Shown here: positions 42,348 to 62,519 of the stretch, one piece after another | How positions within the stretch are numbered: the stretch's first letter is position 1 | Layout of the letters: the number at the start of each line of letters is the position of its first letter | From: Gryllotalpicola sp. | Lineage (GTDB): Bacteria; Actinomycetota; Actinomycetes; Actinomycetales; Microbacteriaceae | NCBI GenBank assembly: GCA_036398375.1 | Contig: DASWPQ010000060.1 | Coordinates: forward strand, 72,956-136,955 | DNA: 64,000 nt | Direction: 5' to 3' | The notes under the pieces: model-generated | Databases searched by the model: none | Told to the model about the DNA's origin: nothing | The model's input: only the letters and a program-made list of their open reading frames with translations | Program-made: the position numbers and the translations under genes

Positions 42348-43846
42348 TGCGCCGCCAGGAACGCCTCGGGCTTCAGCTCGAAGGCCGTGCGGCAGCCGGG
42401 CGAGCAGAAGTAGTACGTCATGCCCTCGTGCTCGAAGCTCGCGGCGGCGGTCCCGGGGCTGACGGTCATGCCGCAGACGGGGTCGCGGTGGGTCCCGTCG
42501 GGGTCGGATGCCATGCCGTGGTGTTTCGTCATCTCGAGGTTCCTCTCATCGAAGTGACCGGCGCAGCGGTCGGAGCAGAAGTAGAAGGTCTCGCCGTCAC
42601 GCATGCGCCAGGCGACGGCATTGGCGATCTCGACCTGCATGCCGCAGACCGGGTCCTTGGCGTAGCGGCCGGTGTCCCTCCGGGTGCGGTAGAGCCAATA
42701 CATGACGGCGAAGAGCACGAGGGCCGCGATGTCGAGCCAGCTCGTGCCTGGGCTGCGAGTGAATACGGCCCAGACCGGCCCGTGCTCCGCCATTGCCGCG
42801 AGGTGCTCCGGCGCAGGAATCCGCACGAGGCGGAACAGGTACTCGACCGCAAGACCCGCCGCGCTCATCGTCGCCCAGAAGACGGCGAGGATCTTGAGCG
42901 TGACCCTGGGGCCGAAGTATCCGCGGTAGATCGCGAGCAGCGGCAGGGCGATCAGGTCGGCGAAGACGAAGGAGACCACGCCGCCGAAGCTCGCGCCGCC
43001 GTGCCAGAGCGTCGCCGCGAGCGGCACGTTGCCCACCGAGCAGACGAAGCTGATAATCGCCAGGAACGGGCCGACGACGACGTTCTCGAGGCTGGACCAG
43101 AAGCCGTGGCCCGTGAGGAACAGGGATTGCCACACGGCGTCGGGCACGAACACCGTGATGAGCCCGGCGACGAGGAATCCGATGATGAGCTCCTTCCGGA
43201 TCATCGTCAGGTCGCTGACCAGGTAGGCCGCCGCGTCCGACCAGCCCTGGCGGCTGCGCAGGCGCTGCCGCAGCGGCAGCTCGTCGTGCACCTCGGCGTC
43301 GTCGTGGTGGTGCCCGTGGGTGGTCTGCCCGCCACCGGCCTGCTCGCCGCCTCGATGGCCCTCGCCGCGCTGGCCGCCGCTTCGGCTCCGGTCCAGATGC
43401 GCATGGGCCTCCGCGGCGGTGCGGCCGCCGAACACGCGCGTGCCCACGAGCGCGAGCAGGGCGATCATGATCGCTCCACCGACGAACTCGGCGAGGGCGA
43501 ACTGCCAGCCGAGCAGCAGCCACAGCACGAGCCCCATCTCGATGACGAGGTTCGTGCTGGCGATCATGAAGACGAGCGAGGTCGTGAAGTCCGCGCCGCG
43601 CCGGAACAGCGTCTTGGCGAGCGCGCTCGCCGCGTAGGAGCAGGAGGAGCTGACCATGCCCCAGAATGTCGCCTTCGCGAGCGTCGCGGGCCGGTGGTCG
43701 CCGAGCATCCGCTGCATGCGCTCACGCGAGACGAACGCCTGCACCGCTCCGGACAGCGCGAAGCCCAGGAACAGCGCCCAAAGCGTGTCCCAGAACATGC
43801 TGAAGGCGTCGACGAGCCCGTCGCCCAGCATCCGCACGAGATCCAT
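42344..43846 (-). CDS. DUF318-type permease with two C-terminal YHS domains
   Basis: SSSCSY and FVCSVGNVP motifs; His-rich loop; DPVCGM...YFCS..C twice. Confidence 0.88.
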   Translation of the reverse strand: MDLVRMLGDGLVDAFSMFWDTLWALFLGFALSGAVQAFVSRERMQRMLGDHRPATLAKATFWGMVSSSCSYAASALAKTLFRRGADFTTSLVFMIASTNLVIEMGLVLWLLLGWQFALAEFVGGAIMIALLALVGTRVFGGRTAAEAHAHLDRSRSGGQRGEGHRGGEQAGGGQTTHGHHHDDAEVHDELPLRQRLRSRQGWSDAAAYLVSDLTMIRKELIIGFLVAGLITVFVPDAVWQSLFLTGHGFWSSLENVVVGPFLAIISFVCSVGNVPLAATLWHGGASFGGVVSFVFADLIALPLLAIYRGYFGPRVTLKILAVFWATMSAAGLAVEYLFRLVRIPAPEHLAAMAEHGPVWAVFTRSPGTSWLDIAALVLFAVMYWLYRTRRDTGRYAKDPVCGMQVEIANAVAWRMRDGETFYFCSDRCAGHFDERNLEMTKHHGMASDPDGTHRDPVCGMTVSPGTAAASFEHEGMTYYFCSPGCRTAFELKPEAFLAAQ

Positions 43847-43855
43847 CGCCCCCAC

Positions 43856-43889
43856 AATACCTGTAAATCCGTACGGTTTTCCAGATATT
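43856..43889. promoter_or_regulatory. 34-bp palindromic operator (likely ArsR)
   Basis: AATACCTGTAAATCCGTACGGTTTTCCAGATATT, 28/34 symmetric, overlapping the TATTGT -10. Confidence 0.75.
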
Positions 43890-43948
43890 CCCGCGCCCCC
43901 GCGCCCCACCCCCGCGCCCCACCCCCGCGTCCCACCCCCGCGCCCCGC
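43890..43948 (-). repeat. G-tract tandem repeat (about 13-bp unit)
   Basis: Iterated CCCCACCCCCGCG on the plus strand. Confidence 0.75.
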
Positions 43949-43954
43949 GGGAAC

Positions 43955-44016
43955 TAGTTCCCGTTCCGGACAGAGGTCGCCGCAGCCGCGGGCGCAGCTG
44001 TCCGGAACGGGAACTA
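43955..44016. repeat. Perfect 19-bp inverted repeat
   Basis: TAGTTCCCGTTCCGGACAG-N24-CTGTCCGGAACGGGAACTA. Confidence 0.88.
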
Positions 44017-44068
44017 ATCGGTGGGCGGCCACGGACCGGGGCCGGGGGCCGGGGCCGAGGACCGGGGG

Positions 44069-45100
44069 CTAGCCGACGACGTCGCTCGAACGCTGCCAGA
44101 TGTTGACGCCCGCGTCGACGGCGTGCCGGTCGATCTCGGCGAGCTCGTCCGAAGTGAAGTCCAGCTTCTGGAGCGCCGCGAGGTTGTCCTCCAGCTGGGC
44201 GACGCTCGACGCGCCGATGAGCGCCGAGGTCACGCGCGCGTCGCGCAGCACCCACGCGATCGCCAGCTGGGCGAGGCTCTGCCCGCGCCCCTCCGCGACG
44301 GCGTGCAGGGCGCGCACCCGCTCGATGGTCTCCTCGGTGAGGAATCCGTCCCGCCACGACGGCGCCGTGGTGGCGCGCGATCCCTCGGGGACGCCGTTCA
44401 GGTACTTGTTCGTCAGCAGACCCTGCGCGAGCGGGCTGAAGGCGATGAGGCCGAGACCGAGCTCGCCGACGGCGTCGAGCAGGCCGCCCTCGACCCAGCG
44501 GTTGAACATCGAGTAGCTCGGCTGGTGGATGAGCGTCGGCGTCCCCATCGCCTTCAGGATCGCGACGGCCTCGCGGGTCCGCTCGGGCGAGTAGCTGGAG
44601 ATGCCCGCATACAACGCCTTCCCGCTGCGGACGGCCCTGTCGAGGGCGCCCATGGTCTCCTCGAGCGGGGTGTCCGGGTCGGCGCGGTGCGAGTAGAAGA
44701 TGTCGACGTAGTCGAGCCCCATGCGCCCGAGCGAGGCATCGAGGCTCGCGAGCAGGTACTTGCGGCTGCCCCACTCGCCGTAGGGGCCGGCGTGCATCCG
44801 GTAGCCGGCCTTGGTCGAGATGATCAGCTCGTCACGGTACGGCCGGAAGTCCTCGGCCATGATCCGGCCGAAGTTCTTCTCGGCGCTGCCGGCAGGCGGG
44901 CCGTAGTTGTTGGCGAGGTCGAAGTGCGTCACGCCGAGGTCGAAGGCGCGGCGCAGGATCGCGCGCTGCGCCTCGAGCGGCGCGGAGTCGCCGAAATTCT
45001 GCCACAACCCGAGCGACACGGCGGGCAGCAGCAGCCCGCTGCGCCCCGTGCGCCGGTAGGGGATGGACTCGTAACGGCTTTCGGAGGCGAGATAGGGCAC
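44069..45100 (-). CDS. Aldo/keto reductase (L-glyceraldehyde-3-phosphate reductase-like)
   Basis: SLGLWQNFG, HFDLANNYGPP.GSAE, STKAGY, SPLAQGLLT. Confidence 0.93.
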   Translation of the reverse strand: MPYLASESRYESIPYRRTGRSGLLLPAVSLGLWQNFGDSAPLEAQRAILRRAFDLGVTHFDLANNYGPPAGSAEKNFGRIMAEDFRPYRDELIISTKAGYRMHAGPYGEWGSRKYLLASLDASLGRMGLDYVDIFYSHRADPDTPLEETMGALDRAVRSGKALYAGISSYSPERTREAVAILKAMGTPTLIHQPSYSMFNRWVEGGLLDAVGELGLGLIAFSPLAQGLLTNKYLNGVPEGSRATTAPSWRDGFLTEETIERVRALHAVAEGRGQSLAQLAIAWVLRDARVTSALIGASSVAQLEDNLAALQKLDFTSDELAEIDRHAVDAGVNIWQRSSDVVG

Positions 45101-52825: not shown

Positions 52826-53266
52826 CTAGGAGTCGGCGATCGTGCTGAGCAGCGCGCAGGCGCGGGCGATCGCGTCGCGGTCCTCTGCGCTGAGCGCCTG
52901 CAGCTGGGCGTCCAGCCAGGCGTGACGCTGGGCGCGCGCGGCGATGGCGAGCTCGGCGCCCTCTGGCGTGATGCTGAACAGCACCTTCCGGCGGTCGTTG
53001 GGGTCGGGGGTACGGACCGCATAACCGGCCGAGGTGAGCCGGTTCACGCTCTGGCTCATCGAGGCGGGAGCGACGTGGTCGTGCTCGCTCAGCCCGGTCA
53101 GGGTCTGCGGGCCGCTCTTGTACAGCCGGGTGAGGACGTCGAGCGCCGTGTCGCCGAGTGTGCCCTCCGGTCGCTCGCTACGGAAGCGGCGGTAGAGCCG
53201 CCCCACCGTCGACCGCACCTGACCGCCGAGCCCGTCGGAGTCCTCACGTGTTGCGCCTGTGCCCAT
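52826..53266 (-). CDS. MarR family regulator
   Basis: SMSQSVNRL..AGY..R.PDPNDRR..ITPEG. Confidence 0.93.
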   Translation of the reverse strand: MGTGATREDSDGLGGQVRSTVGRLYRRFRSERPEGTLGDTALDVLTRLYKSGPQTLTGLSEHDHVAPASMSQSVNRLTSAGYAVRTPDPNDRRKVLFSITPEGAELAIAARAQRHAWLDAQLQALSAEDRDAIARACALLSTIADS

Positions 53267-53308: not shown

Positions 53309-53357
53309 TCACCGCGTTGGACCACCCTCGCTCGCGTTCCTCATGATCGGAGCACCC

Positions 53358-54818
53358 ATGACTTCCCCTCACGCCGCCGAGGAGGCGGCTGCCACAGGCA
53401 GCACCCCCTTCTCCTGGCGGTTCACCACTCCGCTGTTCATCGGTTCCGCGCTGAACCCCATCAACAGCTCGATGATCGCCACCGCCCTTGTGCCGATCGC
53501 CACCGGTCTGCACGTTCCCATCGGCCAGACCGCGTCCCTCGTGACCGCGCTCTACCTCGCCAGCGCCATCGCCCAGCCCACGGCCGGCAAGGTCGCGGAG
53601 GTCTTCGGCGCGCGCCGCGTCTTCCTCGCCGGGATCGTCCTGGTCCTGATCGGCGGCGTCCTCGGCGGCGTGGCGCGGGACGTCCCGATGCTGCTCATCG
53701 CCCGGGTGCTGATCGGCCTGGGCACCTCCTGCGCCTACCCCTCGGCGATGATGCTCATCCAGCGGCGCGCCCGGGCCGCAGGGCTGGAGAAGCCGCCGGG
53801 CGGGGTGCTCGGCGGTCTGCAGATCGCGGGCATCGCGACCGCCGCGCTGGGCCTGCCGATCGGCGGCGTGCTCGTCGAGACCGCCGGCTGGCGCTGGGTC
53901 TTCCTGGTCAACGTCCCCGTGACCCTCATCGCGCTGGCCGCCGCGCTGATCTGGATTCCACGCGACCCGCCCCAGCAGGCGCCGCGGAACGCACGCGAGG
54001 TCCTCTCCCGCATCGACCTCACCGGCATCCTCGGCTTCGCTCTCGCGATGACGGCCCTGCTCGGATTCCTGTTCTCCCTGCCGAACCCGAACTGGGTCGT
54101 GCTGGCCGGCTCCGTCATCCTGTTCGTCGCCCTGACCCTGTGGGAGCTGCGCGCCGCGCATCCGTTCTTCGATGTGCGGATGCTCGTCCGCAACGCGGCG
54201 CTGACGCGGACGTATCTGCGCTTCGCGCTCGTCGCGGTGTGCGTGTACGTCGTCCTCTACGGCATCACCCAATGGCTGGAGGTCGGGCGGGGGATGTCCG
54301 CGCTCGCCTCCGGACTGCTGCTCCTGCCGATGAGCGTGATCTCCGGTGTCGTCGTGGTGCCGATCTCGCGGCGCAACCTCGTTCGCGGCCCGGTCATCGT
54401 CGCCGGCCTGGCCAGTCTGGTCGGCGCCGTCGGCGCGCTGTTCCTCAGCTCGGGAACGGACATCGTCTGGATCGTGGCGATCACCCTCGCCTTCGGCATC
54501 GCCCTCGGCACGGCATCCAGCGGCAATCAGATCGCGCTCTACACCCAGGCTCCACCGGATCAGCTCGGCGTCGCATCCGGCCTGTTCCGCACCTTCGGCT
54601 ACGTCGGATCCATCGCCTCCTCCGCGATCACCGGCGTCGTCTTCCACACCCGCGTCAGCGACAGCGGCGTCCACCTCATCGCATGGATCATGATCGGCCT
54701 CAGCATCGCCACGGTGGCACTGTCGGTCCTGGACCGCTCCGTGCGGAGCCCCGGCAGACCCGATCGCCCCGAACGTCCGTCCGCACGCGTCCCGTCCTCA
54801 AGAATCATCAGAGAGTAA
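53358..54818 (+). CDS. MFS (DHA2-like) efflux transporter
   Basis: LNPINSSMIATAL, GWRWVFLVNVP, many TMs; GGAG RBS before ATG 53358. Confidence 0.92.
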   Translation: MTSPHAAEEAAATGSTPFSWRFTTPLFIGSALNPINSSMIATALVPIATGLHVPIGQTASLVTALYLASAIAQPTAGKVAEVFGARRVFLAGIVLVLIGGVLGGVARDVPMLLIARVLIGLGTSCAYPSAMMLIQRRARAAGLEKPPGGVLGGLQIAGIATAALGLPIGGVLVETAGWRWVFLVNVPVTLIALAAALIWIPRDPPQQAPRNAREVLSRIDLTGILGFALAMTALLGFLFSLPNPNWVVLAGSVILFVALTLWELRAAHPFFDVRMLVRNAALTRTYLRFALVAVCVYVVLYGITQWLEVGRGMSALASGLLLLPMSVISGVVVVPISRRNLVRGPVIVAGLASLVGAVGALFLSSGTDIVWIVAITLAFGIALGTASSGNQIALYTQAPPDQLGVASGLFRTFGYVGSIASSAITGVVFHTRVSDSGVHLIAWIMIGLSIATVALSVLDRSVRSPGRPDRPERPSARVPSSRIIRE

Positions 54819-54828
54819 GGAACCGACC

Positions 54829-55395
54829 ATGCCCGTCAACCCCCTCGGCGTTCTGCTGCGCGGCCGCCGCGCCGGACACCACACGCTCGCCTGGGCGCGT
54901 CCGGAGCTGCAGGCGCCCGAGAACCTCGCGCTCACGAGCCCCGCCTTCGACCACGGCGCCCCCATCCCGGAGCGCTACAAGGGCCGGATGCGCGGCGAGA
55001 ACATCTCGCCCGCCCTCGGCTGGACGCCGCCGCCGCCCGGCACCGCCGAACTCGTGCTCATCGTGGAGGACCCGGACGTGCCCTTCGGCAAGCCCGCCAC
55101 CCACGCGCTCACCGTCGGGATCGACCCGGCGCTGACCGGCATCCCCGAGAACGGCCTCGCCCACCCCAGCGCGATCGCCGGGCTCACCCACGGCACGGGC
55201 GCCCTCGGCCGCCGCGGCTGGGCCGGCCCCCTGCCCATCCGCTCGCACGGGCCGCACTCCTACGTCTTCCAGCTCTTCGCCATGGACGGGCACCTGGAGC
55301 TGCCCGAGACCTTCACCCTCGCGCAGGCGGTCCAGGCCATGGCCGGGCACGTGATCGGGCGCGCCCGGCTCGAGGGGAGCTACGAGATCCGCTGA
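54829..55395 (+). CDS. YbhB/YbcL (PEBP) family protein
   Basis: NISPALGW, VEDPDVP, GP.P..HG.H.YVFQLFA. Confidence 0.92.
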   Translation: MPVNPLGVLLRGRRAGHHTLAWARPELQAPENLALTSPAFDHGAPIPERYKGRMRGENISPALGWTPPPPGTAELVLIVEDPDVPFGKPATHALTVGIDPALTGIPENGLAHPSAIAGLTHGTGALGRRGWAGPLPIRSHGPHSYVFQLFAMDGHLELPETFTLAQAVQAMAGHVIGRARLEGSYEIR

Positions 55396-55470
55396 CGGCG
55401 CGCCCGGCCGGAGCCGGCAGGCGCCGGCAGGCGCCGTCGCGGGCTCCGCACCACCGGTAGCCTGGCCCTC

Positions 55471-56016
55471 ATGCATCGCACGATCCGGCCTCTCTTCGCC
55501 GTCGCCGCCCTCGCGGCGCTGGCCCTGACCGGCTGCGCCGGCGGAGACGGCGGCGCCCCCGCCGCCGCAACGACCCCGAACGCCTCGTCCTCCCCGACCC
55601 CGGCCACCGCCGCCGAGTGTCGGGGCGTGTTCGTCACGGTCCAGTACGGCCTGCTCGGCGGCGATGACGTCGACGCCTGCGATCCGGTGACGAGCACGGC
55701 GACCGCGGCGTCCGTGCTGAAGGACCTCGGAATCACGACCGCGGGCACGACGAAGTACGGCGATCAGGTCGTCTGCCGCGTCAACGGCCGGCCCTCGGCG
55801 TCGACGCCGATCGAGGTGCCCGGCCACGCGCCGTACACCGAACAGTGCCAGAGCATGCCGGCCGCCTTCGCCTACTGGTCGATGTGGGTGCGCGACTCTG
55901 CCGCGGGCCAGTGGGGCTACGCACAGAACGGCGTGGCCGCGGAGCAGCTGAAGCCGGGCCAGACCCTCGGGCTGAAGTTCACCACCGGCACGGACACCGC
56001 CGCGCCGCAGGGCTAG
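55471..56016 (+). CDS. Lipoprotein, probable ECF-associated substrate-binding protein (DUF4430/transcobalamin-like)
   Basis: Lipobox LTGC; VCRVNGRP, YWSMW, WGYAQ.G...LKPGQ. Confidence 0.7.
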   Translation: MHRTIRPLFAVAALAALALTGCAGGDGGAPAAATTPNASSSPTPATAAECRGVFVTVQYGLLGGDDVDACDPVTSTATAASVLKDLGITTAGTTKYGDQVVCRVNGRPSASTPIEVPGHAPYTEQCQSMPAAFAYWSMWVRDSAAGQWGYAQNGVAAEQLKPGQTLGLKFTTGTDTAAPQG

Positions 56017-56024
56017 GCTCCGCG

Positions 56025-58040
56025 GTGCGCTTCCGCCCCGCCCCGCTGCGGCAGGCCGCGATCTTCGCGGCCGTGTTCGTGGCCGCGCGCGTGGTGTACC
56101 GGGCACTCTTCGCCGGAGCATCCGGCTCGGGCATCCGTCTGCTCGATCTGCCGCTCGTGCTGCTGCCCGCCCCGTTCAGCGGCGTGGAGCTGCTCGGACC
56201 GGTCACGAGCGGCGGCCTGTTGAGCGCGCTGCGCTCGGCCCTGCCCTTCGTCGCCGTCATCCTCTTCTTCGGCGTGCTCAACGCGGTCGTCGATGTGCGC
56301 CCGATCGTTGCGGCCTCAGCCCGCCGCGGACCCGTGCGCTCGCTCGCGCGCGCCCTCGTGATCGCCGGGCAGACGTTCCCCGCGCTGGGAGCGGCCGTGG
56401 GACGTGCCGCCCGTGCCGCCCGGCTGCGCGGCGAACGGCCGGGGCCGAGCACGCTCGTCCCCGTGCTCGAGGGCACGATCGAGCGGGCCGTCGCGCTCGC
56501 CGCCTCGCTCGAACTGCGCGGCTTCGCGGCCGAGCGCCGGGTCGACGGCGTGTGCGAGGCACCCGTGCGGGCGCGGGATGCCGCACTCGAGCGCCCGGGC
56601 TGGCGCCTGGAGATCCCGTCACTCGCCCTCTCCCCCGGCACGCTCACGGTGCTGACCGGGCCGACCGGCGCCGGCAAGTCGAGTGTGCTCGGCGCGCTCT
56701 CCGGCCTCTTCCAGCACGTCGACGGCGGCAGGCAGACCGGATCGCTCCTGGTCGGCGAAGTCGACCGGGCGCGCGTGCCGCCGCGGGAGACCTCCGGGTT
56801 CGTCGGGGCGGTCGCGCAGCAGGTGCGCGCCGCCTTCGCCGGGGAGACGGTCGCCGAGGAGCTCGGTCTCGCCCTCGCGCTGCGCGGCGTGGCGCCCGTC
56901 ATCGTCGCCGCGCGGGTGCGCGAACTCGCCGAACAGCTCGGGATCGCGTCGCTGCTCGACCGCCCCGTCGGCGCGCTCTCGGCGGGCGAGGCCGTGCTGA
57001 CGGCGCTCGGCGCGGCCGTGATCGAAAACCCGGCGCTGCTGCTGGTGGACGAGCCGCTCGCCGAGCTCGACGAGCACGCCCGGCCGCGCGTCGTCGCCGC
57101 CCTCGACGCGCTCGCGCACCGGGCGGGCGTCTGCGTCGTGGTCGCCGAGCATCGGGCCGCATGGTTCCGCGACGTCGCGGACGGCTGGCTCGCGATCGCG
57201 GGCGGCGAGCTGCGCGAGACGGATGCCTCCGCCGCGGCATTTGCATCAGGGAACCTTTTCTCAGCCCCAGGGAACCAATGCTTCCCGGCTCCCGCGTCGG
57301 GGCGGCCGGTCCCGTCCCGGGGAGCCACGGAAACAATGGTTCCCTGGGATTCGAAAACGGTTCCCTCGCGCAAGTCCCGCGGAGACGTCATCGCCGAACT
57401 CCGCGGGGTGAGCGTGCGGCGCGGCGGGCGACTCGCGGTCGACGCCGTCTCCCTCGAGCTCGCGGCCGGCGAGCTGGTCGCGCTCACGGGCCCGAACGGG
57501 GCGGGGAAGTCCTCGCTGCTCGCCGCGTTCGCGGTGCCCGAGGCCGCCGGTCGTGTGCTCGTGCGCGGCCAGGACGCCCGGGGGCTCGCGCCGCGCGCCC
57601 GGCACGCGGCGGTGGCCCTCGTCCCCGAGCTCGTCGAGGAGCTCTTCGTGACCGACTCGGTCGCGGCCGAGTGCCGCCGCGCCGATCGGCGCTGGCATCC
57701 GTCCCTCCCGACCTCCGGGCGGCTGGGCGCGCTGCTCGGTGTCGAGCCGGCGGTGCTCGGCGGCACGCATCCGCGCGACCTCTCCGGCGGCCAGCGGATC
57801 TGCCTCGCCATCGCGCTGCAGCTCGCCGCCGAGCCCGCCGTGCTGCTCGTCGACGAGCCCGTGCGCGGCCTCGACGCCCGGGCCCGCGGCGAGGTCGCCG
57901 CCGCGCTACGGCGTGCTGCGGCCACCGGGGCGGCCGTGCTCTTCGCGACCCATGAGCGCGACTTCGCGGCTGCGCTCGCCCACCGCACACTGCGGCTCGA
58001 GTCCGGGCGGCTCGTCGCTCCGGAGGAGGTGCCCGCATGA
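56025..58040 (+). CDS. ECF T-component fused to tandem ATPases
   Basis: N-terminal TMs with RLRG/ELRGF; GPTGAGKS/LSAGE/VDEP and GPNGAGKS/LSGGQ/VDEP. Confidence 0.88.
   Translation: MRFRPAPLRQAAIFAAVFVAARVVYRALFAGASGSGIRLLDLPLVLLPAPFSGVELLGPVTSGGLLSALRSALPFVAVILFFGVLNAVVDVRPIVAASARRGPVRSLARALVIAGQTFPALGAAVGRAARAARLRGERPGPSTLVPVLEGTIERAVALAASLELRGFAAERRVDGVCEAPVRARDAALERPGWRLEIPSLALSPGTLTVLTGPTGAGKSSVLGALSGLFQHVDGGRQTGSLLVGEVDRARVPPRETSGFVGAVAQQVRAAFAGETVAEELGLALALRGVAPVIVAARVRELAEQLGIASLLDRPVGALSAGEAVLTALGAAVIENPALLLVDEPLAELDEHARPRVVAALDALAHRAGVCVVVAEHRAAWFRDVADGWLAIAGGELRETDASAAAFASGNLFSAPGNQCFPAPASGRPVPSRGATETMVPWDSKTVPSRKSRGDVIAELRGVSVRRGGRLAVDAVSLELAAGELVALTGPNGAGKSSLLAAFAVPEAAGRVLVRGQDARGLAPRARHAAVALVPELVEELFVTDSVAAECRRADRRWHPSLPTSGRLGALLGVEPAVLGGTHPRDLSGGQRICLAIALQLAAEPAVLLVDEPVRGLDARARGEVAAALRRAAATGAAVLFATHERDFAAALAHRTLRLESGRLVAPEEVPA
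57249..57365. repeat. 117-bp palindromic element in frame within the ECF ATPase gene
   Basis: About 45-bp imperfect arms GGGAACC..CCCAGGGAACCA..GGCTCCC and their complement. Confidence 0.82.
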
Positions 58041-58825
58041 CGGAGCTGCGCCCTCCGTCGTTCGAGTCCGCCGCGAGGAGCCGCATCCGCCTCGACTGGC
58101 GCGGCCTCGCGCTCGTCGCGGGCAGCCTGCTCGCGGCCGCCGGCTTCGCCTGGCCGTTCTTCGCGCCCGCGCTGCCCGCCGACGCGCAGAAGGCCGTGCC
58201 CTACCTCGCGTTCGCGCTCGTGCCCGCGCTCGTCGCCGCGCTCGCCATGGTGCTCGACGCCCAGGTCGCGAGCGCGAAGGCCGTCGCGCTGCTGGGCGTG
58301 CTGGGCGCGATCGGTGCTGTCACGCGCGTCGCCGGGGACACCGTCGGCGGCATCGAGCCCGTCTTCATCGTGCTGACCCTCGCCGGGCGGGCCTTCGGCG
58401 CACGCTTCGGCTTCCTGCTCGGCGCCGTCGTGATGACCGTCTCCGCGGTGATCTCCGGCGGCATCGGGCCGTGGCTGCCGTTCCAGGTCTTCGCGTGCGC
58501 CTGGGTCGCCGCAGGCGCCGGCCTGCTGCCCGGCATCCGTTCGAGGCTCGGTGAGCTCATCCTGCTCGCCGGCTACGGCGCGATCGTCTCCTGGCTCGTG
58601 GGCGCCGCCCTCAACCTCTGGTTCTGGCCGTTCGCGATCGGCTCGGGCACCAGCATCTCCTACGCGGCGGATGCCTCGCTCGCCCACAACCTGAAGGCCT
58701 TCGCGCTCTACTCGCTCGCGACCTCGACGCTCACCTGGGACACCGTGCGCGCGATCACGACGGTCGTCGGCATCGCGCTGGTCGGCCGGCCCGTGCTCGC
58801 CGCCCTCCGCCGCGCGAAGCTCTGA
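58037..58825 (+). CDS. ECF S-component (CbrT-like)
   Basis: GIEPVF, GRAFGARFGFLLG, GGIGPWLPFQ, WDTVRA. Confidence 0.87.
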   Translation: MTELRPPSFESAARSRIRLDWRGLALVAGSLLAAAGFAWPFFAPALPADAQKAVPYLAFALVPALVAALAMVLDAQVASAKAVALLGVLGAIGAVTRVAGDTVGGIEPVFIVLTLAGRAFGARFGFLLGAVVMTVSAVISGGIGPWLPFQVFACAWVAAGAGLLPGIRSRLGELILLAGYGAIVSWLVGAALNLWFWPFAIGSGTSISYAADASLAHNLKAFALYSLATSTLTWDTVRAITTVVGIALVGRPVLAALRRAKL

Positions 58826-58901
58826 AGACGACGCGAAGCAGCCACGTGCCCTCCGCAGCGCGCGACGACTCGTGCCGGGCGCGGACCGGAACGACAGGAA
58901 A

Positions 58902-61900
58902 TCACACGCTGAAGTACGTGGACTCGGGGTGGTGGAACACGAAGGCGTCCGTCGACTGCTCCGGGTGCAGCTGCAGCTCCTCGGACAGCTCGACGCCGAT
59001 CCGCTCGGGCCGCAGCAGCTCGACGACCTTGCCGCGGTCCGTCATGTCCGGGCACGCCGGGTAGCCGAGCGAGAAGCGCGCGCCGCGGTACTCGAGCTTG
59101 AACAGCCCCTCAGTCGCCTTCGGGTCCTCGTCCGCGAAGCCGAGCTCACGGCGGATGCGCGCATGCCAGAACTCCGCGAGCGCCTCGGTGAGCTGCATCG
59201 CCAGGCCGTTGAGCTCCAGGTAGTCGCGGTAGCGGTTCGCGGCGAAGATCTTCGCGGTCGCCTCGCTCACCGACTGCCCGGCGGTGACGAGCTGCACGGG
59301 CATCACGTCGACCTGACCCGAGGCGCGCGGGCGCACGAAGTCCGCGAGGCACAGGTGGCGGTCGCGGCGCTGCCGCGGGAAGTGGAAGCGCAGCCGCTCG
59401 GTGCCGAGTGCCCCCGGAACGCCCGGGGCCGAACCGCCGTCCGGGGCCAGCAGCCCTGGCGCGCCGAGCACACCGCCCTCGTCGTCGCCGTGGTGCAGCA
59501 CCACGATGTCGTCGCCCTCGGAGACCACGGGGAAGTAGCCGTAGGCGACGGATGCCTCCATCAGCCCCTCGGCGAGGATGCGGTCGAGCCAGTACCTCAG
59601 CCGCGGCCGGCCCTCGGTCGCCACCAGCCGCTCGTAGCTCTGCCCGCCCTCGCCCCGGCCCGGCTTGAGGCCCCACTGCCCCATGAAGGTCGCGCGCTCG
59701 TCGAGGAACGCCGCGAAGTCAGCGAGCGGGATGCCACGCACGATGCGTGTGCCCCAGAACGGCGGCGCGGGGACGGGGTTGTCGGCCGCCACGTCCGAAC
59801 GCGCCGGCATCGCCTCGGGCTCGGTCAGGGTCAGCTGGGGGCCCTCCCGGTGGATGCGCTTCTTGAGCGGCGGCAGGCCGACCGTCTCCGGGTCGGCGCC
59901 GCGGGCGATCCTGACGAGCGGCTCCATGAGGGCGAGTCCCTCGAAGGCGTCCCGGGCGTAGCGCACTTCGCCGTCGAACAGGGACGCGAGGTCGTCCTCG
60001 ACATAGGCGCGGGTGAGGGCCGCGCCGCCGAGCAGCACCGGCCAGCGGCCGGCCAGCCCGCGCTGGTTCAGCTCCAGCAGGTTCTCCTTCATCACGACCG
60101 TCGACTTCACGAGCAAGCCGCTCATGCCGATGACGTCGGCGTGGTGCCGCTCGGCGGCGTCGATGATGTCGAGGATCGGCTGCTTGATACCGAGGTTGAC
60201 CACCTCGTAGCCGTTGTTGCTCAGGATGATGTCGACCAGGTTCTTGCCGATGTCGTGCACGTCGCCGCGGACGGTGGCGAGCACGATGCGTCCCTTGCCG
60301 GCCGCGGCATCCGTCTTGTCCATATGCGGCTCGAGGAATGCGACCGCCGTCTTCATCACCTCGGCGGACTGCAGCACGAACGGCAGCTGCATCTCTCCGG
60401 CCCCGAAGCGCTCGCCGACGATCTTCATGCCCTCCAGGAGATGCACGTTGATGATGTCGAGCGCGCTGGTGCCCTCGGCCATCGCCTGGTCGAGGTCGTC
60501 CTCCAGGCCCTTCGCCTCGCCGTCGATGATGCGCCGCTCCAGACGCTCGCCGACGGGCAGCGCGGCGAGCTCGGCGGCGCGCTGGTCGCGCAGCGCCTTG
60601 GTGTCGACGCCGGCGAAGATCTCGAGCATGCGCGCGAGGGGGTCGTAGCTGAGCGTGCCGTCGGCCGCGTAGGCGCGCCGGTCCCAGACGAGGTCGAGGG
60701 CGACCTGGCGCTGCTCCTCGGGCAACGAGGCCAGCGGCACGATCTTCGCGGCGTCGATGATCGCCGAGTCGAGTCCTGCGTTCACCGCCTCGTGCAGGAA
60801 CACCGAGTTGAGCACCTGGCGCGCGGCGGGGTTCAGGCCGAAGGAGACGTTGGAGACGCCGAGGGTCGTGTGGATGCCCGGATACTTCTCCGTGAGCCGC
60901 TGGATGGCGGAGAGCGTCTCGATCGCGTCCCGGCGCGTCTCCTCCTGACCCGTCGCGATCGGGAAGGTCAGGCAGTCGACGATGATGTCCTCGACGTCGA
61001 GGCCCCATTCGCCCGTGAGCGCCTCGACGAGGCGGGTCGCGATGGCCAGCTTGCCGTCGGACGTGCGCGCCTGGCCCTGCTCGTCGATCGTCAAGGCGAC
61101 GACGGCGGCGCCGTGCTCCTTCACGAGCGGCATGATCCGCCCGAAGCGCGACTCGGGCCCGTCGCCGTCCTCGAAGTTCACGGAGTTGATGACCGGGCGC
61201 CCGCCGATGAGCTCGAGCCCGGCCTGCAGCACGGCGGGCTCGGTGGAGTCGACGACGAGCGGCAGGGTCGAGGCGCTCGCGAGCCGCGAGACGACCTCGC
61301 GCACATCGGCGACGCCGTCACGGCCGACGTAGTCGATGCACACGTCCAGCAAGTGCGCGCCCGCACGGATCTGCCGACGGGCGATCTCGACGCAGTCGTC
61401 CCAGCGCTCCTCGAGCATCGCCTCGCGGAAGGCCTTCGAGCCGTTGGCGTTGGTGCGCTCGCCGATGGCGAGGTACGAGGCGTCCTGCTCGAAGGGGACG
61501 TGCTGGTAGAGGCTCGCGACACCCGGGTCGTCTTCGACCTCCCGCGTCACGGCCGGGGTGCGGCCCAGTCGCTCGACGACGGCGCTGAGGTGCGCGGGCG
61601 TGGTGCCGCAGCATCCGCCCACCAGCCCCAGCCCGAACTCGCGCACGAACTGCTCGTGCGCCGTCGCGAGCTCGGCCGGCTGCAGCGGATACTCGGCGCC
61701 GTTCGCGCCGAGCACGGGCAGCCCGGCATTGGGCATGCAGATGACAGGCACCTTCGAGTGCTTCGAGAGGTAGCGCAGGTGCTCGCTCATCAGGTCGGGG
61801 CCGGTCGCGCAGTTCAAGCCGATGGCGTCGACGCCGAGCGGCTCGATCGCGGTCAGTGCGGCCCCCACCTCCGAGCCCATCAGCATGGTGCCGGTGGTCT

Positions 61901-62519
61901 CGACCGTGATCTCCACGAAGACGGGCAGCCGGATGCCTGCGGAGGCGTTCGCGGCCTTGCAGCCGTTCACGGCCGCCTTGGTCTGGAGCAGGTCCTGCGA
62001 GGTCTCGATGAGGAAGGCGTCGGCGCCGCCCGCGATGAGCCCCGCGGCCTGCTGCCGGAAGGTGTCGCGCAGGTGCGCGTACGTCGTGTGGCCGAGGCTC
62101 GGCAGCTTGGTGCCGGGGCCCATCGAGCCGAGCACCCAGCGCAGCCGGCCGTCGCGGGACTCCCACGCCTCCGCGCGTTCGCGGGCGATGCGCGCCCCGG
62201 CCGCGGCGAGCTCCTCGATGCGGTCGTCGATGCCGTAGTCGGAGAGGTTCGACCAGTTCGCGCCGAAGGTGTTCGTCTCCACCGCGTCGACGCCGACCTC
62301 GTAGTACGCGTCGTGGATCGCGCCGATGACGTCGGGGCGGGACACGTTGAGGATCTCGTTGCAGCCCTCGAGCTGCCGATAGTCGTCGAGGCTCGGCTCG
62401 TGGGCCTGGATCATGGTGCCCATTGCGCCGTCGGCGACGACGACGCGGGTCCTCATCTCGTCCAGCAGGGCCTGTGCGCGGGGCGGGACGGCGGCGGGGG
62501 CGGGGAGGGGCGACGTCAC
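58902..62519 (-). CDS. metH: Cobalamin-dependent methionine synthase
   Basis: DGAMGT, GLNC, GGCCGT, IGERTN, GDVHDIGKN, HPEQST. Confidence 0.98.
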   Translation of the reverse strand: MTSPLPAPAAVPPRAQALLDEMRTRVVVADGAMGTMIQAHEPSLDDYRQLEGCNEILNVSRPDVIGAIHDAYYEVGVDAVETNTFGANWSNLSDYGIDDRIEELAAAGARIARERAEAWESRDGRLRWVLGSMGPGTKLPSLGHTTYAHLRDTFRQQAAGLIAGGADAFLIETSQDLLQTKAAVNGCKAANASAGIRLPVFVEITVETTGTMLMGSEVGAALTAIEPLGVDAIGLNCATGPDLMSEHLRYLSKHSKVPVICMPNAGLPVLGANGAEYPLQPAELATAHEQFVREFGLGLVGGCCGTTPAHLSAVVERLGRTPAVTREVEDDPGVASLYQHVPFEQDASYLAIGERTNANGSKAFREAMLEERWDDCVEIARRQIRAGAHLLDVCIDYVGRDGVADVREVVSRLASASTLPLVVDSTEPAVLQAGLELIGGRPVINSVNFEDGDGPESRFGRIMPLVKEHGAAVVALTIDEQGQARTSDGKLAIATRLVEALTGEWGLDVEDIIVDCLTFPIATGQEETRRDAIETLSAIQRLTEKYPGIHTTLGVSNVSFGLNPAARQVLNSVFLHEAVNAGLDSAIIDAAKIVPLASLPEEQRQVALDLVWDRRAYAADGTLSYDPLARMLEIFAGVDTKALRDQRAAELAALPVGERLERRIIDGEAKGLEDDLDQAMAEGTSALDIINVHLLEGMKIVGERFGAGEMQLPFVLQSAEVMKTAVAFLEPHMDKTDAAAGKGRIVLATVRGDVHDIGKNLVDIILSNNGYEVVNLGIKQPILDIIDAAERHHADVIGMSGLLVKSTVVMKENLLELNQRGLAGRWPVLLGGAALTRAYVEDDLASLFDGEVRYARDAFEGLALMEPLVRIARGADPETVGLPPLKKRIHREGPQLTLTEPEAMPARSDVAADNPVPAPPFWGTRIVRGIPLADFAAFLDERATFMGQWGLKPGRGEGGQSYERLVATEGRPRLRYWLDRILAEGLMEASVAYGYFPVVSEGDDIVVLHHGDDEGGVLGAPGLLAPDGGSAPGVPGALGTERLRFHFPRQRRDRHLCLADFVRPRASGQVDVMPVQLVTAGQSVSEATAKIFAANRYRDYLELNGLAMQLTEALAEFWHARIRRELGFADEDPKATEGLFKLEYRGARFSLGYPACPDMTDRGKVVELLRPERIGVELSEELQLHPEQSTDAFVFHHPESTYFSV

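Follow-up and report, generated by a model that had tools for sequence, protein, structure and literature searches.

A predicted cobalamin importer with a transcobalamin-like lipoprotein, encoded opposite metH in Gryllotalpicola

A three-gene operon in Gryllotalpicola encodes a lipoprotein, a single polypeptide made up of a shortened EcfT and two ABC ATPases (T-A-A fusion), and an S component. On the basis of sequence and structure comparisons, the three genes likely specify an ECF-type ABC importer of the dedicated kind (group I) that takes up cobalamin or related complete corrinoids. Corrinoid specificity is supported by homologous operons, 11 of which have an upstream cobalamin riboswitch and two of which have nrdJ downstream, and from which we infer the ligand. 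This kind of system is already known, having been predicted by Burroughs in 2007 and Rodionov in 2009, and there is a similar operon in Lactobacillus sakei. The T-A-A fusion, the beta-only lipoprotein, the eight-helix S component, and the riboswitch-free linkage to metH are new here.

Operon layout and encoded proteins

All elements of the operon described in the initial annotation (lipoprotein, T-A-A fusion, and S component) were found (Table 1), as was the 76-bp distance from the S component to metH, with convergent stops at 58825 and 58902. Only 75 bp separate the stop of a PEBP gene (55395) from the lipoprotein ATG. Within the operon, the lipoprotein and T-A-A genes are 8 bp apart, and the T-A-A stop and the S start share a 4-bp overlap (ATGA). 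The spacer between the S and metH genes contains no recognisable terminator and has a folding z-score of +2.2. The genes are real, with homologues in the hundreds and the same gene order in 66/66 related loci that span the operon. T-A-A is encoded by a single ORF in all 66 of these loci, and its orthologues share the start position. Many genera have the order lipoprotein, T-A-A, S, and convergent metH in common, and the genes upstream are not conserved.

Table 1. Features of the operon and the adjacent metH gene, numbered within the window (the whole 64-kb stretch of DNA that was analysed)
Feature	Positions	Strand	Description
Putative -10 hexamer TAGCCT	55458-55463	+	Sequence reading; 7 nt before lipoprotein ATG
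Lipoprotein ORF	55471-56016	+	181 aa; Pfam PF28005, "SCO2322" family
T-A-A fusion ORF	56025-58040	+	671 aa; GTG start at 56025
Shortened EcfT (T) domain	56025-56549	+	Fusion residues 1 to ~175
Two ABC ATPase domains (EcfA-EcfA')	56550-58040	+	PF00005 twice
S component ORF	58037-58825	+	262 aa
Spacer between convergent S and metH stops	58826-58901		76 bp
metH, cobalamin-dependent methionine synthase	58902-62456	-	1184 aa; TIGR02082, 1367.6 bits

The lipoprotein has a signal peptide with a lipobox (L-T-G-C22), the Cys22 of which is conserved in the alignment, predicting export to the cell surface. This is followed by a low-complexity linker (residues ~23 to 48) and a transcobalamin beta-domain-like (SLBB/DUF4430-type) beta-grasp domain (residues ~49 to 175) with four invariant cysteines. 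The AF2 model has a pLDDT of 85.5 overall and of >90 within the domain. A fold search upholds the earlier description of the lipoprotein as transcobalamin-like. In VIA-align, the model matches bovine transcobalamin (2bb6_A, residues 317 to 414; Z 10.9, rmsd 2.4, 93 aligned residues), 5no0 (Z 10.4), 2pmv (Z 9.9), the DUF4430 structure 3u7z (Z 9.9), and 4kkj (Z 9.7). The beta domains of transcobalamin, intrinsic factor, and haptocorrin, together with 3u7z, are thus clearly first, with the next fold at Z 6.1. Foldseek places the same proteins at its top ranks, among them 5np4, the isolated human transcobalamin beta domain crystallised with cyanocobalamin. The lipoprotein is most likely an extracellular corrinoid catcher. 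In the local Pfam copy, no family was found for it at an E value of ≤0.01; the precomputed annotation, given to the identical sequence and many homologues, is PF28005 ("SCO2322" according to the Atlas). The NCBIfam model NF040672 scores 23.8 bits (cut-off, 85), and several homologues are labelled DUF4430 in UniRef. A tblastn search of the whole Gryllotalpicola genome with toroid-like candidates from two riboswitch-bearing loci (L084 and L085) found no alpha/alpha-toroid partner. The candidate genes themselves give faint TED (E = 2.7e-4, just below the cut-off) and Cobalamin_bind (E = 0.11) signals.

The second gene had been read as a single polypeptide joining EcfT to both ATPases, and this is confirmed by PDB matches exclusively to EcfT and by two complete ABC domains. 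The T profile (A4) matches only EcfT chains in the PDB (4hzu_T, E = 1.9e-10; 4huq_T; 5d3m_D; E values up to 9.1e-10), with its residues 58 to 171 aligned to EcfT residues 101 to 233. Compared with full-length EcfT, the domain is truncated at both the N and C termini; it has two to three hydrophobic segments and two coupling helices that end in RLRG (133 to 136) and LELRG (162 to 166). In these X-Arg-Gly coupling motifs, Arg135 does not vary, and at least 90% of sequences retain Arg165-Gly166. Pfam CbiQ (PF02361) has no match to the N-terminal 192 aa of the fusion at an E value of ≤1, and a genome-wide PF02361 search misses the fusion. The T domain does match the stand-alone T homologue of L084 (tblastn, E = 2.5e-10), which is itself CbiQ positive (33 bits). 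Both ATPase domains are intact (Walker A at 212 and 489, signature at 318 and 586, and Walker B at 338 and 606) and are joined by a linker of ~60 aa.

Eight helices are predicted for the S component, two of which are extra helices at the N terminus. Against 177,635 PDB sequences, the only significant match of the S profile (A2) is CbrT (6fnp_A; E = 2.3e-6, 30.2 bits), with residues 73 to 181 aligned to CbrT residues 5 to 114 (~110 residues), a match weak enough that it supports a relationship and not orthology. The one other sequence listed has an E value of 1.9. The proposal of a CbrT-type S component is therefore consistent with the sole PDB sequence match of the profile. The S component scores 23.3 bits against Pfam PF12822, below the cut-off of 30.7, and its homologues in L082 to L085 score above it; NCBI names close homologues "ECF transporter S component." The AF2 model (pLDDT 79) shows the six-helix fold of solved S components, with Foldseek probabilities of 0.96 to 1.00 to FolT, RibU, ThiT, and PanT and of 0.90 to BioY. 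FolT and RibU rank first in the structure search (TM by target, 0.56 to 0.70), so that the fold of S does not discriminate among substrates. In the S tree, the clade of the window forms one group (100/98 support), with a riboswitch-bearing pair as its sister.

Riboswitches, transcription start, and the link to MetH

Eleven homologous operons have a cobalamin riboswitch upstream on the same strand (L082 to L085, L091, L096, L097, L101 to L103, and L105). In a phylum-wide sample of 20 loci, a riboswitch was found upstream on the same strand in 7 and nearby on the opposite strand in 2 more. At the Gryllotalpicola operon, the absence of a riboswitch reported in the initial annotation was confirmed: no cobalamin riboswitch was found in the window, either at the gathering score or at an E value of ≤10, and neither RF00174 nor RF01482 has a match in the genome assembly, which is 88.7% complete. 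This absence is not peculiar to the operon but typical of the Microbacteriaceae, in which only four genuine matches occur among 120 relatives. All four are directly upstream of homologous SLBB + T + A-A + S operons, two of which have nrdJ next in line.

The lipoprotein ATG is not preceded by a Shine-Dalgarno sequence, and TAGCCT may serve as a -10 element that probably gives rise to a leaderless transcript. A scan for the sigma-70 consensus gave no match. The earlier suggestion of a leaderless first gene gains comparative support from a conserved TANNNT, located 6 to 7 nt before the start codon and without a Shine-Dalgarno sequence, in 34 related loci of Gryllotalpicola, Agromyces, Cryobacterium, and Microbacterium. 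The 33 other loci have a Shine-Dalgarno-like GGAGG/AAGG instead and belong largely to small-genome lineages, e.g., Pontimonas and Aurantimicrobium. If the mRNA is leaderless, the operon has no place for a cobalamin riboswitch like the one by which its relatives are regulated.

A survey of 121 Microbacteriaceae genomes found S in 23 and MetH in 20. Every one of the 20 genomes with MetH is S positive, and MetH is absent from every S-negative genome, although these counts overstate independence because the genomes are kin. Together with the conserved linkage to metH, this co-occurrence favours the earlier view that the importer supplies MetH. A single S-positive genome, G040, lacks both MetH and NrdJ. 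The search for CbiC was negative in all 121 genomes. In the Gryllotalpicola genome, CbiC, CobS, and CbiB were not found, MetE is present, and MetH is the only firmly placed B12-dependent enzyme of those searched for (MetH, NrdJ, and methylmalonyl-CoA mutase); absences from this genome are provisional because of the incompleteness of the assembly. It also has six FecCD-type permease genes, which leave room for another B12 route.

Proposed mechanism and alternative explanations

In the proposed mechanism, the operon would be transcribed as a leaderless mRNA from the -10 box 7 nt before the ATG. The lipoprotein, on the outer face of the membrane, would capture the corrinoid and presumably hand it to the S component, and the T-A-A fusion would power toppling of S, releasing the cofactor into the cytoplasm. 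Since no corrin-ring or nucleotide-loop synthesis was detectable, the imported cofactor is what would make the adjacent MetH usable, with MetE as a B12-independent back-up. More speculatively, the beta-only lipoprotein and the two extra helices of S might form a site for corrinoid capture and hand-off, making this ECF importer dependent on a binding protein in the manner of classical ABC importers. In this tentative extension, the leaderless operon and metH would constitute a "B12-use cassette" without a riboswitch, whose parts are inherited, transferred, or lost together in a family that has abandoned B12 in other respects.

The ECF module could also import B12 with a lipoprotein that does not bind corrinoids and that functions in stabilisation or assembly of the complex or binds a cell-wall polysaccharide or another soluble ligand. 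Such a role would fit a protein that corresponds to just the beta half of the transcobalamin sandwich, in a genome where no toroid partner was found. In addition, Wza-type polysaccharide export proteins, which are SLBB relatives, appear in its fold list at Z ~5, other SLBB domains bind different ligands, and the characterised ECF-CbrT works without an accessory protein (PMC5997447). However, the Z scores of the transcobalamin clade stand 4 units over those of all other beta-grasp folds, and cyanocobalamin was present in the crystals of the isolated human beta domain. The lipoprotein gene is also first in every related locus that spans the operon, and in relatives its homologues lie directly behind the riboswitch. 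A lipoprotein that does not bind corrinoids is thus unlikely.

Least probable of the alternatives is import of another micronutrient (folate, cobalt, or nickel), with the metH linkage being coincidental or reflecting folate supply. By sequence, S matches only CbrT, the riboswitches of the relatives are cobalamin specific, and a transcobalamin-like domain would be unexpected in a system for folate or a metal. FolT and RibU, the structures that best match the S model, would agree with such a substrate, but this ranking is uninformative because the fold is common to all S components. Good scores are also obtained with ATPase family models such as cbiO, and MetH also uses methyl-tetrahydrofolate. 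Import of heme or another tetrapyrrole would have a precedent in lsa1836-1840 of L. sakei, a deletion mutant of which is presented as confirming a role in heme uptake (bioRxiv 10.1101/864751); ECF heme importers exist (PMC7299338). Heme is nonetheless a highly improbable substrate here, given that relatives are under cobalamin riboswitches with nrdJ downstream, that the S gene tracks MetH, and that no heme-related neighbour was found within the window.

Comparison with known systems

ECF vitamin importers are the textbook case of ABC importers that operate with no binding protein outside the cell. A dedicated form for B12, CbrTUV/CbrUVT, was reportedly predicted genomically by Rodionov et al. 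in 2009 on the basis of cobalamin riboswitch control. CbrTUV/CbrUVT has since been named as a B12 transporter (PMC6593275), and ECF-CbrT of Lactobacillus delbrueckii has been characterised (PDB 6FNP; Santos et al. 2018, PMC5997447). Like the system in the window, ECF-CbrT is an ECF-type importer encoded beside the gene for a B12-dependent enzyme (nrdJ there and metH here) in a host that does not make B12. However, CbrT has 182 aa and six helices and uses the shared general ECF module (group II), whereas the S component in the window has 262 aa and two extra N-terminal helices and appears to have a dedicated module. The window also differs in having T, A, and A' in one polypeptide, with T cut to ~175 aa, and a lipoprotein gene in first place.

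The initial annotation noted that ECF systems normally lack extracellular binding proteins, but the pairing of an ECF system with a transcobalamin-like extracellular protein has been predicted and described before. Burroughs, Balaji, Iyer, and Aravind (2007, Biol Direct 2:4, PMC1796856) reported transcobalamin-like SLBB surface proteins in CbiO/CbiQ operons and proposed that they scavenge B12 in a bacterium without B12 synthesis. Those systems share with the window an exported beta-grasp protein of the transcobalamin C-terminal clade, the gene for which accompanies those for the ECF ATPase and T. However, the earlier proteins are mostly multidomain, often fused to an alpha/alpha toroid, and several have Gram-positive anchor motifs, whereas the lipoprotein in the window is small, consists of the beta domain only, with two probable disulfides, and is without a toroid partner elsewhere in the genome. 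The lsa1836-1840 operon of Latilactobacillus sakei encodes S, fused A-A', T, and exported transcobalamin beta-like and alpha-like proteins and is the only operon of such layout with genetic data that we found in the literature (bioRxiv 10.1101/864751). It differs from the window in belonging to the Firmicutes, in having both alpha and beta proteins, in the separation of T from the ATPases, and in its assignment to heme uptake; the passages of the preprint that were consulted mention neither a riboswitch nor a connection with metH.

Bacterial transcobalamin-like proteins have been predicted B12 catchers since 2007, and we found no report in the literature of a B12-binding test on them. The Microbacteriaceae variant reduces the system to one beta-only lipoprotein, one fused motor with a pared-down EcfT, and one S component, and it offers a tractable, minimal case for such a test. 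It would show that B12 uptake encoded by a leaderless mRNA, as this one appears to be, can be retained with no riboswitch to control it. Because MetH does not occur without the importer, the importer may be a clean predictive marker of B12 dependence in this widespread soil and freshwater family, and it could aid the annotation of many genes that at present carry the label "hypothetical protein" or "ABC transporter ATP-binding protein."

A further comparison is with the actinobacterial riboswitch operons of the SCO2322 type (PF28005/NF040672), in which homologous S, T, and A-A' families are arranged in the same order as in the window. In 7 of the 11 riboswitch loci (L082 to L085, L091, L096, and L097), the first gene was recognised as SLBB-like. 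These operons mostly have a separate full-length EcfT (317 to 349 aa in L084 and L085), sometimes with the addition of an alpha/alpha-toroid-like protein and nrdJ. In contrast, the clade of the window is riboswitch free and combines a probable leaderless start with the T-A-A fusion and a convergent metH.

Operon layout and predicted leaderless start

The putative importer genes lie in a region of about 70% G+C from a member of the Microbacteriaceae and form the three-gene operon (55471 to 58825) that had been described in the initial annotation, with 76 bp between the stop codon of the S component gene and that of the convergent metH. Among named organisms, Gryllotalpicola species are its nearest relatives. 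The gene junctions consist of an 8-bp gap and then a 4-bp overlap (ATGA). Folding of the 76-bp spacer was worse than that of shuffled sequences, and consensus scans of positions 55200 to 59100 revealed neither a sigma-70 promoter nor an intrinsic terminator. The genes encoding the MarR regulator, the MFS efflux protein, and the PEBP/YbhB protein are not conserved beside the importer in relatives.

Features of the importer operon and its surroundings
Feature	Position	Strand	Remarks
MarR regulator gene	52826-53266	-	Divergent from MFS efflux gene
DHA2-type MFS efflux gene	53343-54818	+	Upstream of importer
PEBP/YbhB gene	54829-55395	+	Directly after MFS efflux gene
Lipoprotein gene	55471-56016	+	181 aa, lipobox Cys22
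T-A-A fusion gene	56025-58040	+	671 aa
S component gene	58037-58825	+	262 aa, membrane protein
metH	58902-62456	Convergent to operon	TIGR02082, 1367 bits

Only 75 bp of intergenic space precedes the lipoprotein ATG. A Shine-Dalgarno sequence is absent, and a TAGCCT motif ends 7 nt 5' of the start codon. Leaderless actinobacterial genes usually have a -10-like box just before the start codon. The pattern TANNNT, located 6 to 7 nt from the start, recurs in 34 related loci from four high-G+C genera, with variable flanking bases. In 33 further loci, mostly those of lineages with small genomes, a sequence resembling a Shine-Dalgarno site (GGAGG or AAGG) takes its place. Based upon base frequencies at 70% G+C, TANNNT would occur by chance at one of two fixed positions in <1% of sequences. 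Judging from these sequence features, the operon transcript is probably leaderless.

The lack of a riboswitch that had been noted for the importer extends beyond the operon, as no cobalamin riboswitch was matched in the window even at an E value of ≤10, and none was found in the genome to which it belongs (88.7% complete). The midpoint-rooted S protein tree groups the sequences that are metH linked and riboswitch free into a single clade (support, 100/98) and places a pair with riboswitches, also of this family, as its sister (95/90). The S sequences linked to nrdJ are placed elsewhere in this tree.

Riboswitches, MetH, and B12 synthesis across genomes

Four lines of evidence, namely, riboswitches in relatives, the phylogenetic profile, the missing synthesis genes, and synteny, agree on a B12 system. 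Cobalamin riboswitch matches were found in 5 of 120 other Microbacteriaceae genomes, and four of these are directly upstream of operons built from the gene families of the window. The first or second genes of those four operons are homologous to the window lipoprotein family (hhalign probability, 95 to 96%); nrdJ follows two of the operons, and in two there is also a gene for a larger exported protein, in which alpha/alpha-barrel signals are faint. The fifth match (L081, on the 8,670-bp contig G050:C9) is the strongest of the family sample, at 79 bits, and precedes a gene for a TonB-dependent receptor. It was set aside as probable contamination because such a receptor is a Gram-negative feature within a Microbacteriaceae assembly.

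Sampling across the phylum showed the S family in 108 of 301 genomes, a tally that takes in six unpublished genomes (G168, G294, G121, G138, G240, and G268), which entered into no other result. The gene order T, A-A, S is kept in all 20 of the phylum-wide loci, drawn from 19 genomes that represent about 17 families; in seven of these loci, a riboswitch precedes the operon on its own strand, and two further loci have one nearby on the opposite strand. The idea that an operon unlinked to metH implies a riboswitch fails, because the operons of genomes G040 and G053 and of locus L013 are unlinked to metH yet riboswitch free. The G040 operon (L086; G040:C20:4000-20000) has the arrangement SLBB, T, A-A, S, and neither MetH nor NrdJ was found in that genome.

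The phylogenetic profile covers 121 Microbacteriaceae genomes from 101 genera, of which 23 have S and 20 have MetH. Every one of the 20 genomes with MetH also has S, and the 98 genomes lacking S all lack MetH as well, although these counts do not represent independent events because the genomes are kin. Apart from G040, the S-positive genomes without MetH are two with an nrdJ-linked operon. CbiC was found in 0 of the 121 genomes, and CobS and CbiB were not detected in the 88.7% complete genome of the window, which does encode the B12-independent methionine synthase MetE (contig C50, approximately 42955 to 44763). A tblastn search with the NrdJ of locus L083 found no NrdJ in this genome; that query was used in place of PF08471, for which the search was uninformative (the control was unmatched). 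A methylmalonyl-CoA mutase gene (714 bits; contig C40, 313 to 1857) is the sole gene on a 2,056-bp contig, and none was found in the 120 other Microbacteriaceae genomes, same genus included. The contig is either a contaminant or a recent acquisition, and, because of this isolation and the absence from relatives, the mutase was not relied on as a second B12 consumer.

Among 80 loci from at least eight named genera and from MAGs, the order of lipoprotein, T-A-A, S, and convergent metH was found in nearly every sufficiently long locus. The block is also kept in L088 (G129:C12:221617-232851), a locus from another family of the same order, and its S protein nests within the Microbacteriaceae clade of the S tree, which hints that the whole block may have been transferred.

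The lipoprotein, the T-A-A fusion, and the S component

The AlphaFold model of the lipoprotein, built on 40 homologues, has a mean pLDDT of 85.5, with values of >90 over residues 49 to 175. In a search against all representative structures, the top matches were the bovine and human transcobalamin beta domains, intrinsic factor, haptocorrin, and a DUF4430 structure (3u7z), with Z scores of 9.7 to 10.9 and rmsd values of 2.4 to 3.2 over 93 to 96 residues, whereas all other beta-grasp proteins had Z scores of ≤6.1. The kinship to DUF4430 and the transcobalamin beta domain that had been anticipated for this protein is thus what the fold search returned, and the Foldseek top list was identical. Four cysteines (C50, C70, C102, and C126) are invariant or nearly so in the alignment of homologues, which suggests that the lipoprotein may hold two disulfides. 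Precomputed collection annotation and the ESM Atlas both assign it to Pfam PF28005 (SCO2322), and Pfam and NCBIfam scans gave nothing usable besides a sub-threshold SCO2322 match. The NCBIfam alignment pairs residues 131 to 176 (window positions 55861 to 55998) with model positions 4 to 47 of 144, that is, the C-terminal part of the lipoprotein with the N-terminal part of the model. In the full-text literature, we found no paper that names SCO2322-2325, and, judging by titles and abstracts, none of the publications mentioning DUF4430 appears to characterize a bacterial DUF4430 protein.

The T domain (the N-terminal ~175 residues of the fusion) does not match Pfam CbiQ even at an E value of ≤1, and its identity therefore rests on profile-to-PDB and transitive matches. 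Against the whole PDB, its profile (from alignment A4, which leaves out L083:4064-4906) matched EcfT chains only (E value, ~1e-10), over a region with two coupling helices, and both Arg motifs are present and conserved. Compared with the fused T, the T proteins encoded separately in relatives (317 and 349 aa) are longer by ~55 to 80 residues at the N terminus and by ~90 at the C terminus. Motifs are intact in both ATPase halves, and each of the 66 related loci spanning the fusion has T-A-A as one ORF. In loci L014 (10393-12006) and L026 (10504-12147), the whole T-A-A fits in a stop-to-stop frame of 538 to 548 codons, versus 671 aa in the window; the compact T-A-A of some small-genome freshwater lineages is an extreme compaction of the ECF module.

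Close homologues of the S protein are named "ECF transporter S component" by NCBI. The S profile had a single significant match in the PDB, to 6FNP chain A (182 aa, listed as "membrane protein"; E value, 2.3e-6), with the alignment beginning at profile position 73. This chain was taken as CbrT because the remaining chains of the entry are the ECF module (PMC5997447). In the structural model, a canonical S fold is preceded by two extra N-terminal helices. Structure searching with this predicted model confirmed the S fold, with FolT and RibU first and CbrT absent among the matches listed, and cannot assign the substrate. Several database S proteins of different genera share a conserved Pro/Ser/Thr/Arg-rich C-terminal tail (columns ~390 to 450 of S alignment A2), and in some genomes the S match runs up to the metH match or a few bases into it (e.g., G024:C1:2233279-2233283). 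This tail is possibly an artifact of an ORF called too long, in which the conserved metH 3' end is translated in antisense.

Proposed mechanism, alternatives, and known systems

We propose that the operon encodes a dedicated importer for cobalamin or related complete corrinoids. The anchored beta-grasp domain would capture a complete cobamide outside the membrane and pass it to the S component, with the extra S helices as a possible docking site. T-A-A would hydrolyze ATP and topple S, releasing the cofactor inside; ECF-CbrT, like other ECF transporters, is known to work by ATP-driven toppling of S (PMC5997447, PMC10368641). The imported cofactor would be used by MetH, with MetE covering B12-free growth. 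With neither of the nucleotide-loop enzymes (CobS and CbiB) found, cobinamide alone would presumably be of no use to the cell.

It is conceivable, if unlikely, that the ECF module imports B12 while the lipoprotein is no corrinoid binder. Import of heme or another tetrapyrrole rather than cobalamin is suggested by an L. sakei operon of similar build but is contradicted by the riboswitch and MetH/NrdJ associations, and we consider it highly improbable. Folate, metals, or other micronutrients have no specific support as substrates and would be very surprising ones.

CbrT-type ECF B12 transporters were reportedly predicted in 2009. Transcobalamin-like exported proteins with CbiO/CbiQ-type genes were predicted in B12 nonproducers in 2007 (PMC1796856), and one CbrT-type ECF B12 transporter was characterized in 2018 (PMC5997447). 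A similar operon has already been described in L. sakei. Rv2325c/Rv2326c of M. tuberculosis may belong to the same family as the window importer. A review goes no further than to name it as a putative system of the ECF or cobalt type (PMC7761784). Relative to these systems, what is new is the riboswitch-free, metH-linked form with its predicted leaderless start, the joining of a minimal EcfT to the ATPases in the T-A-A fusion, a lipoprotein with the beta domain only, and the clean co-occurrence with MetH.
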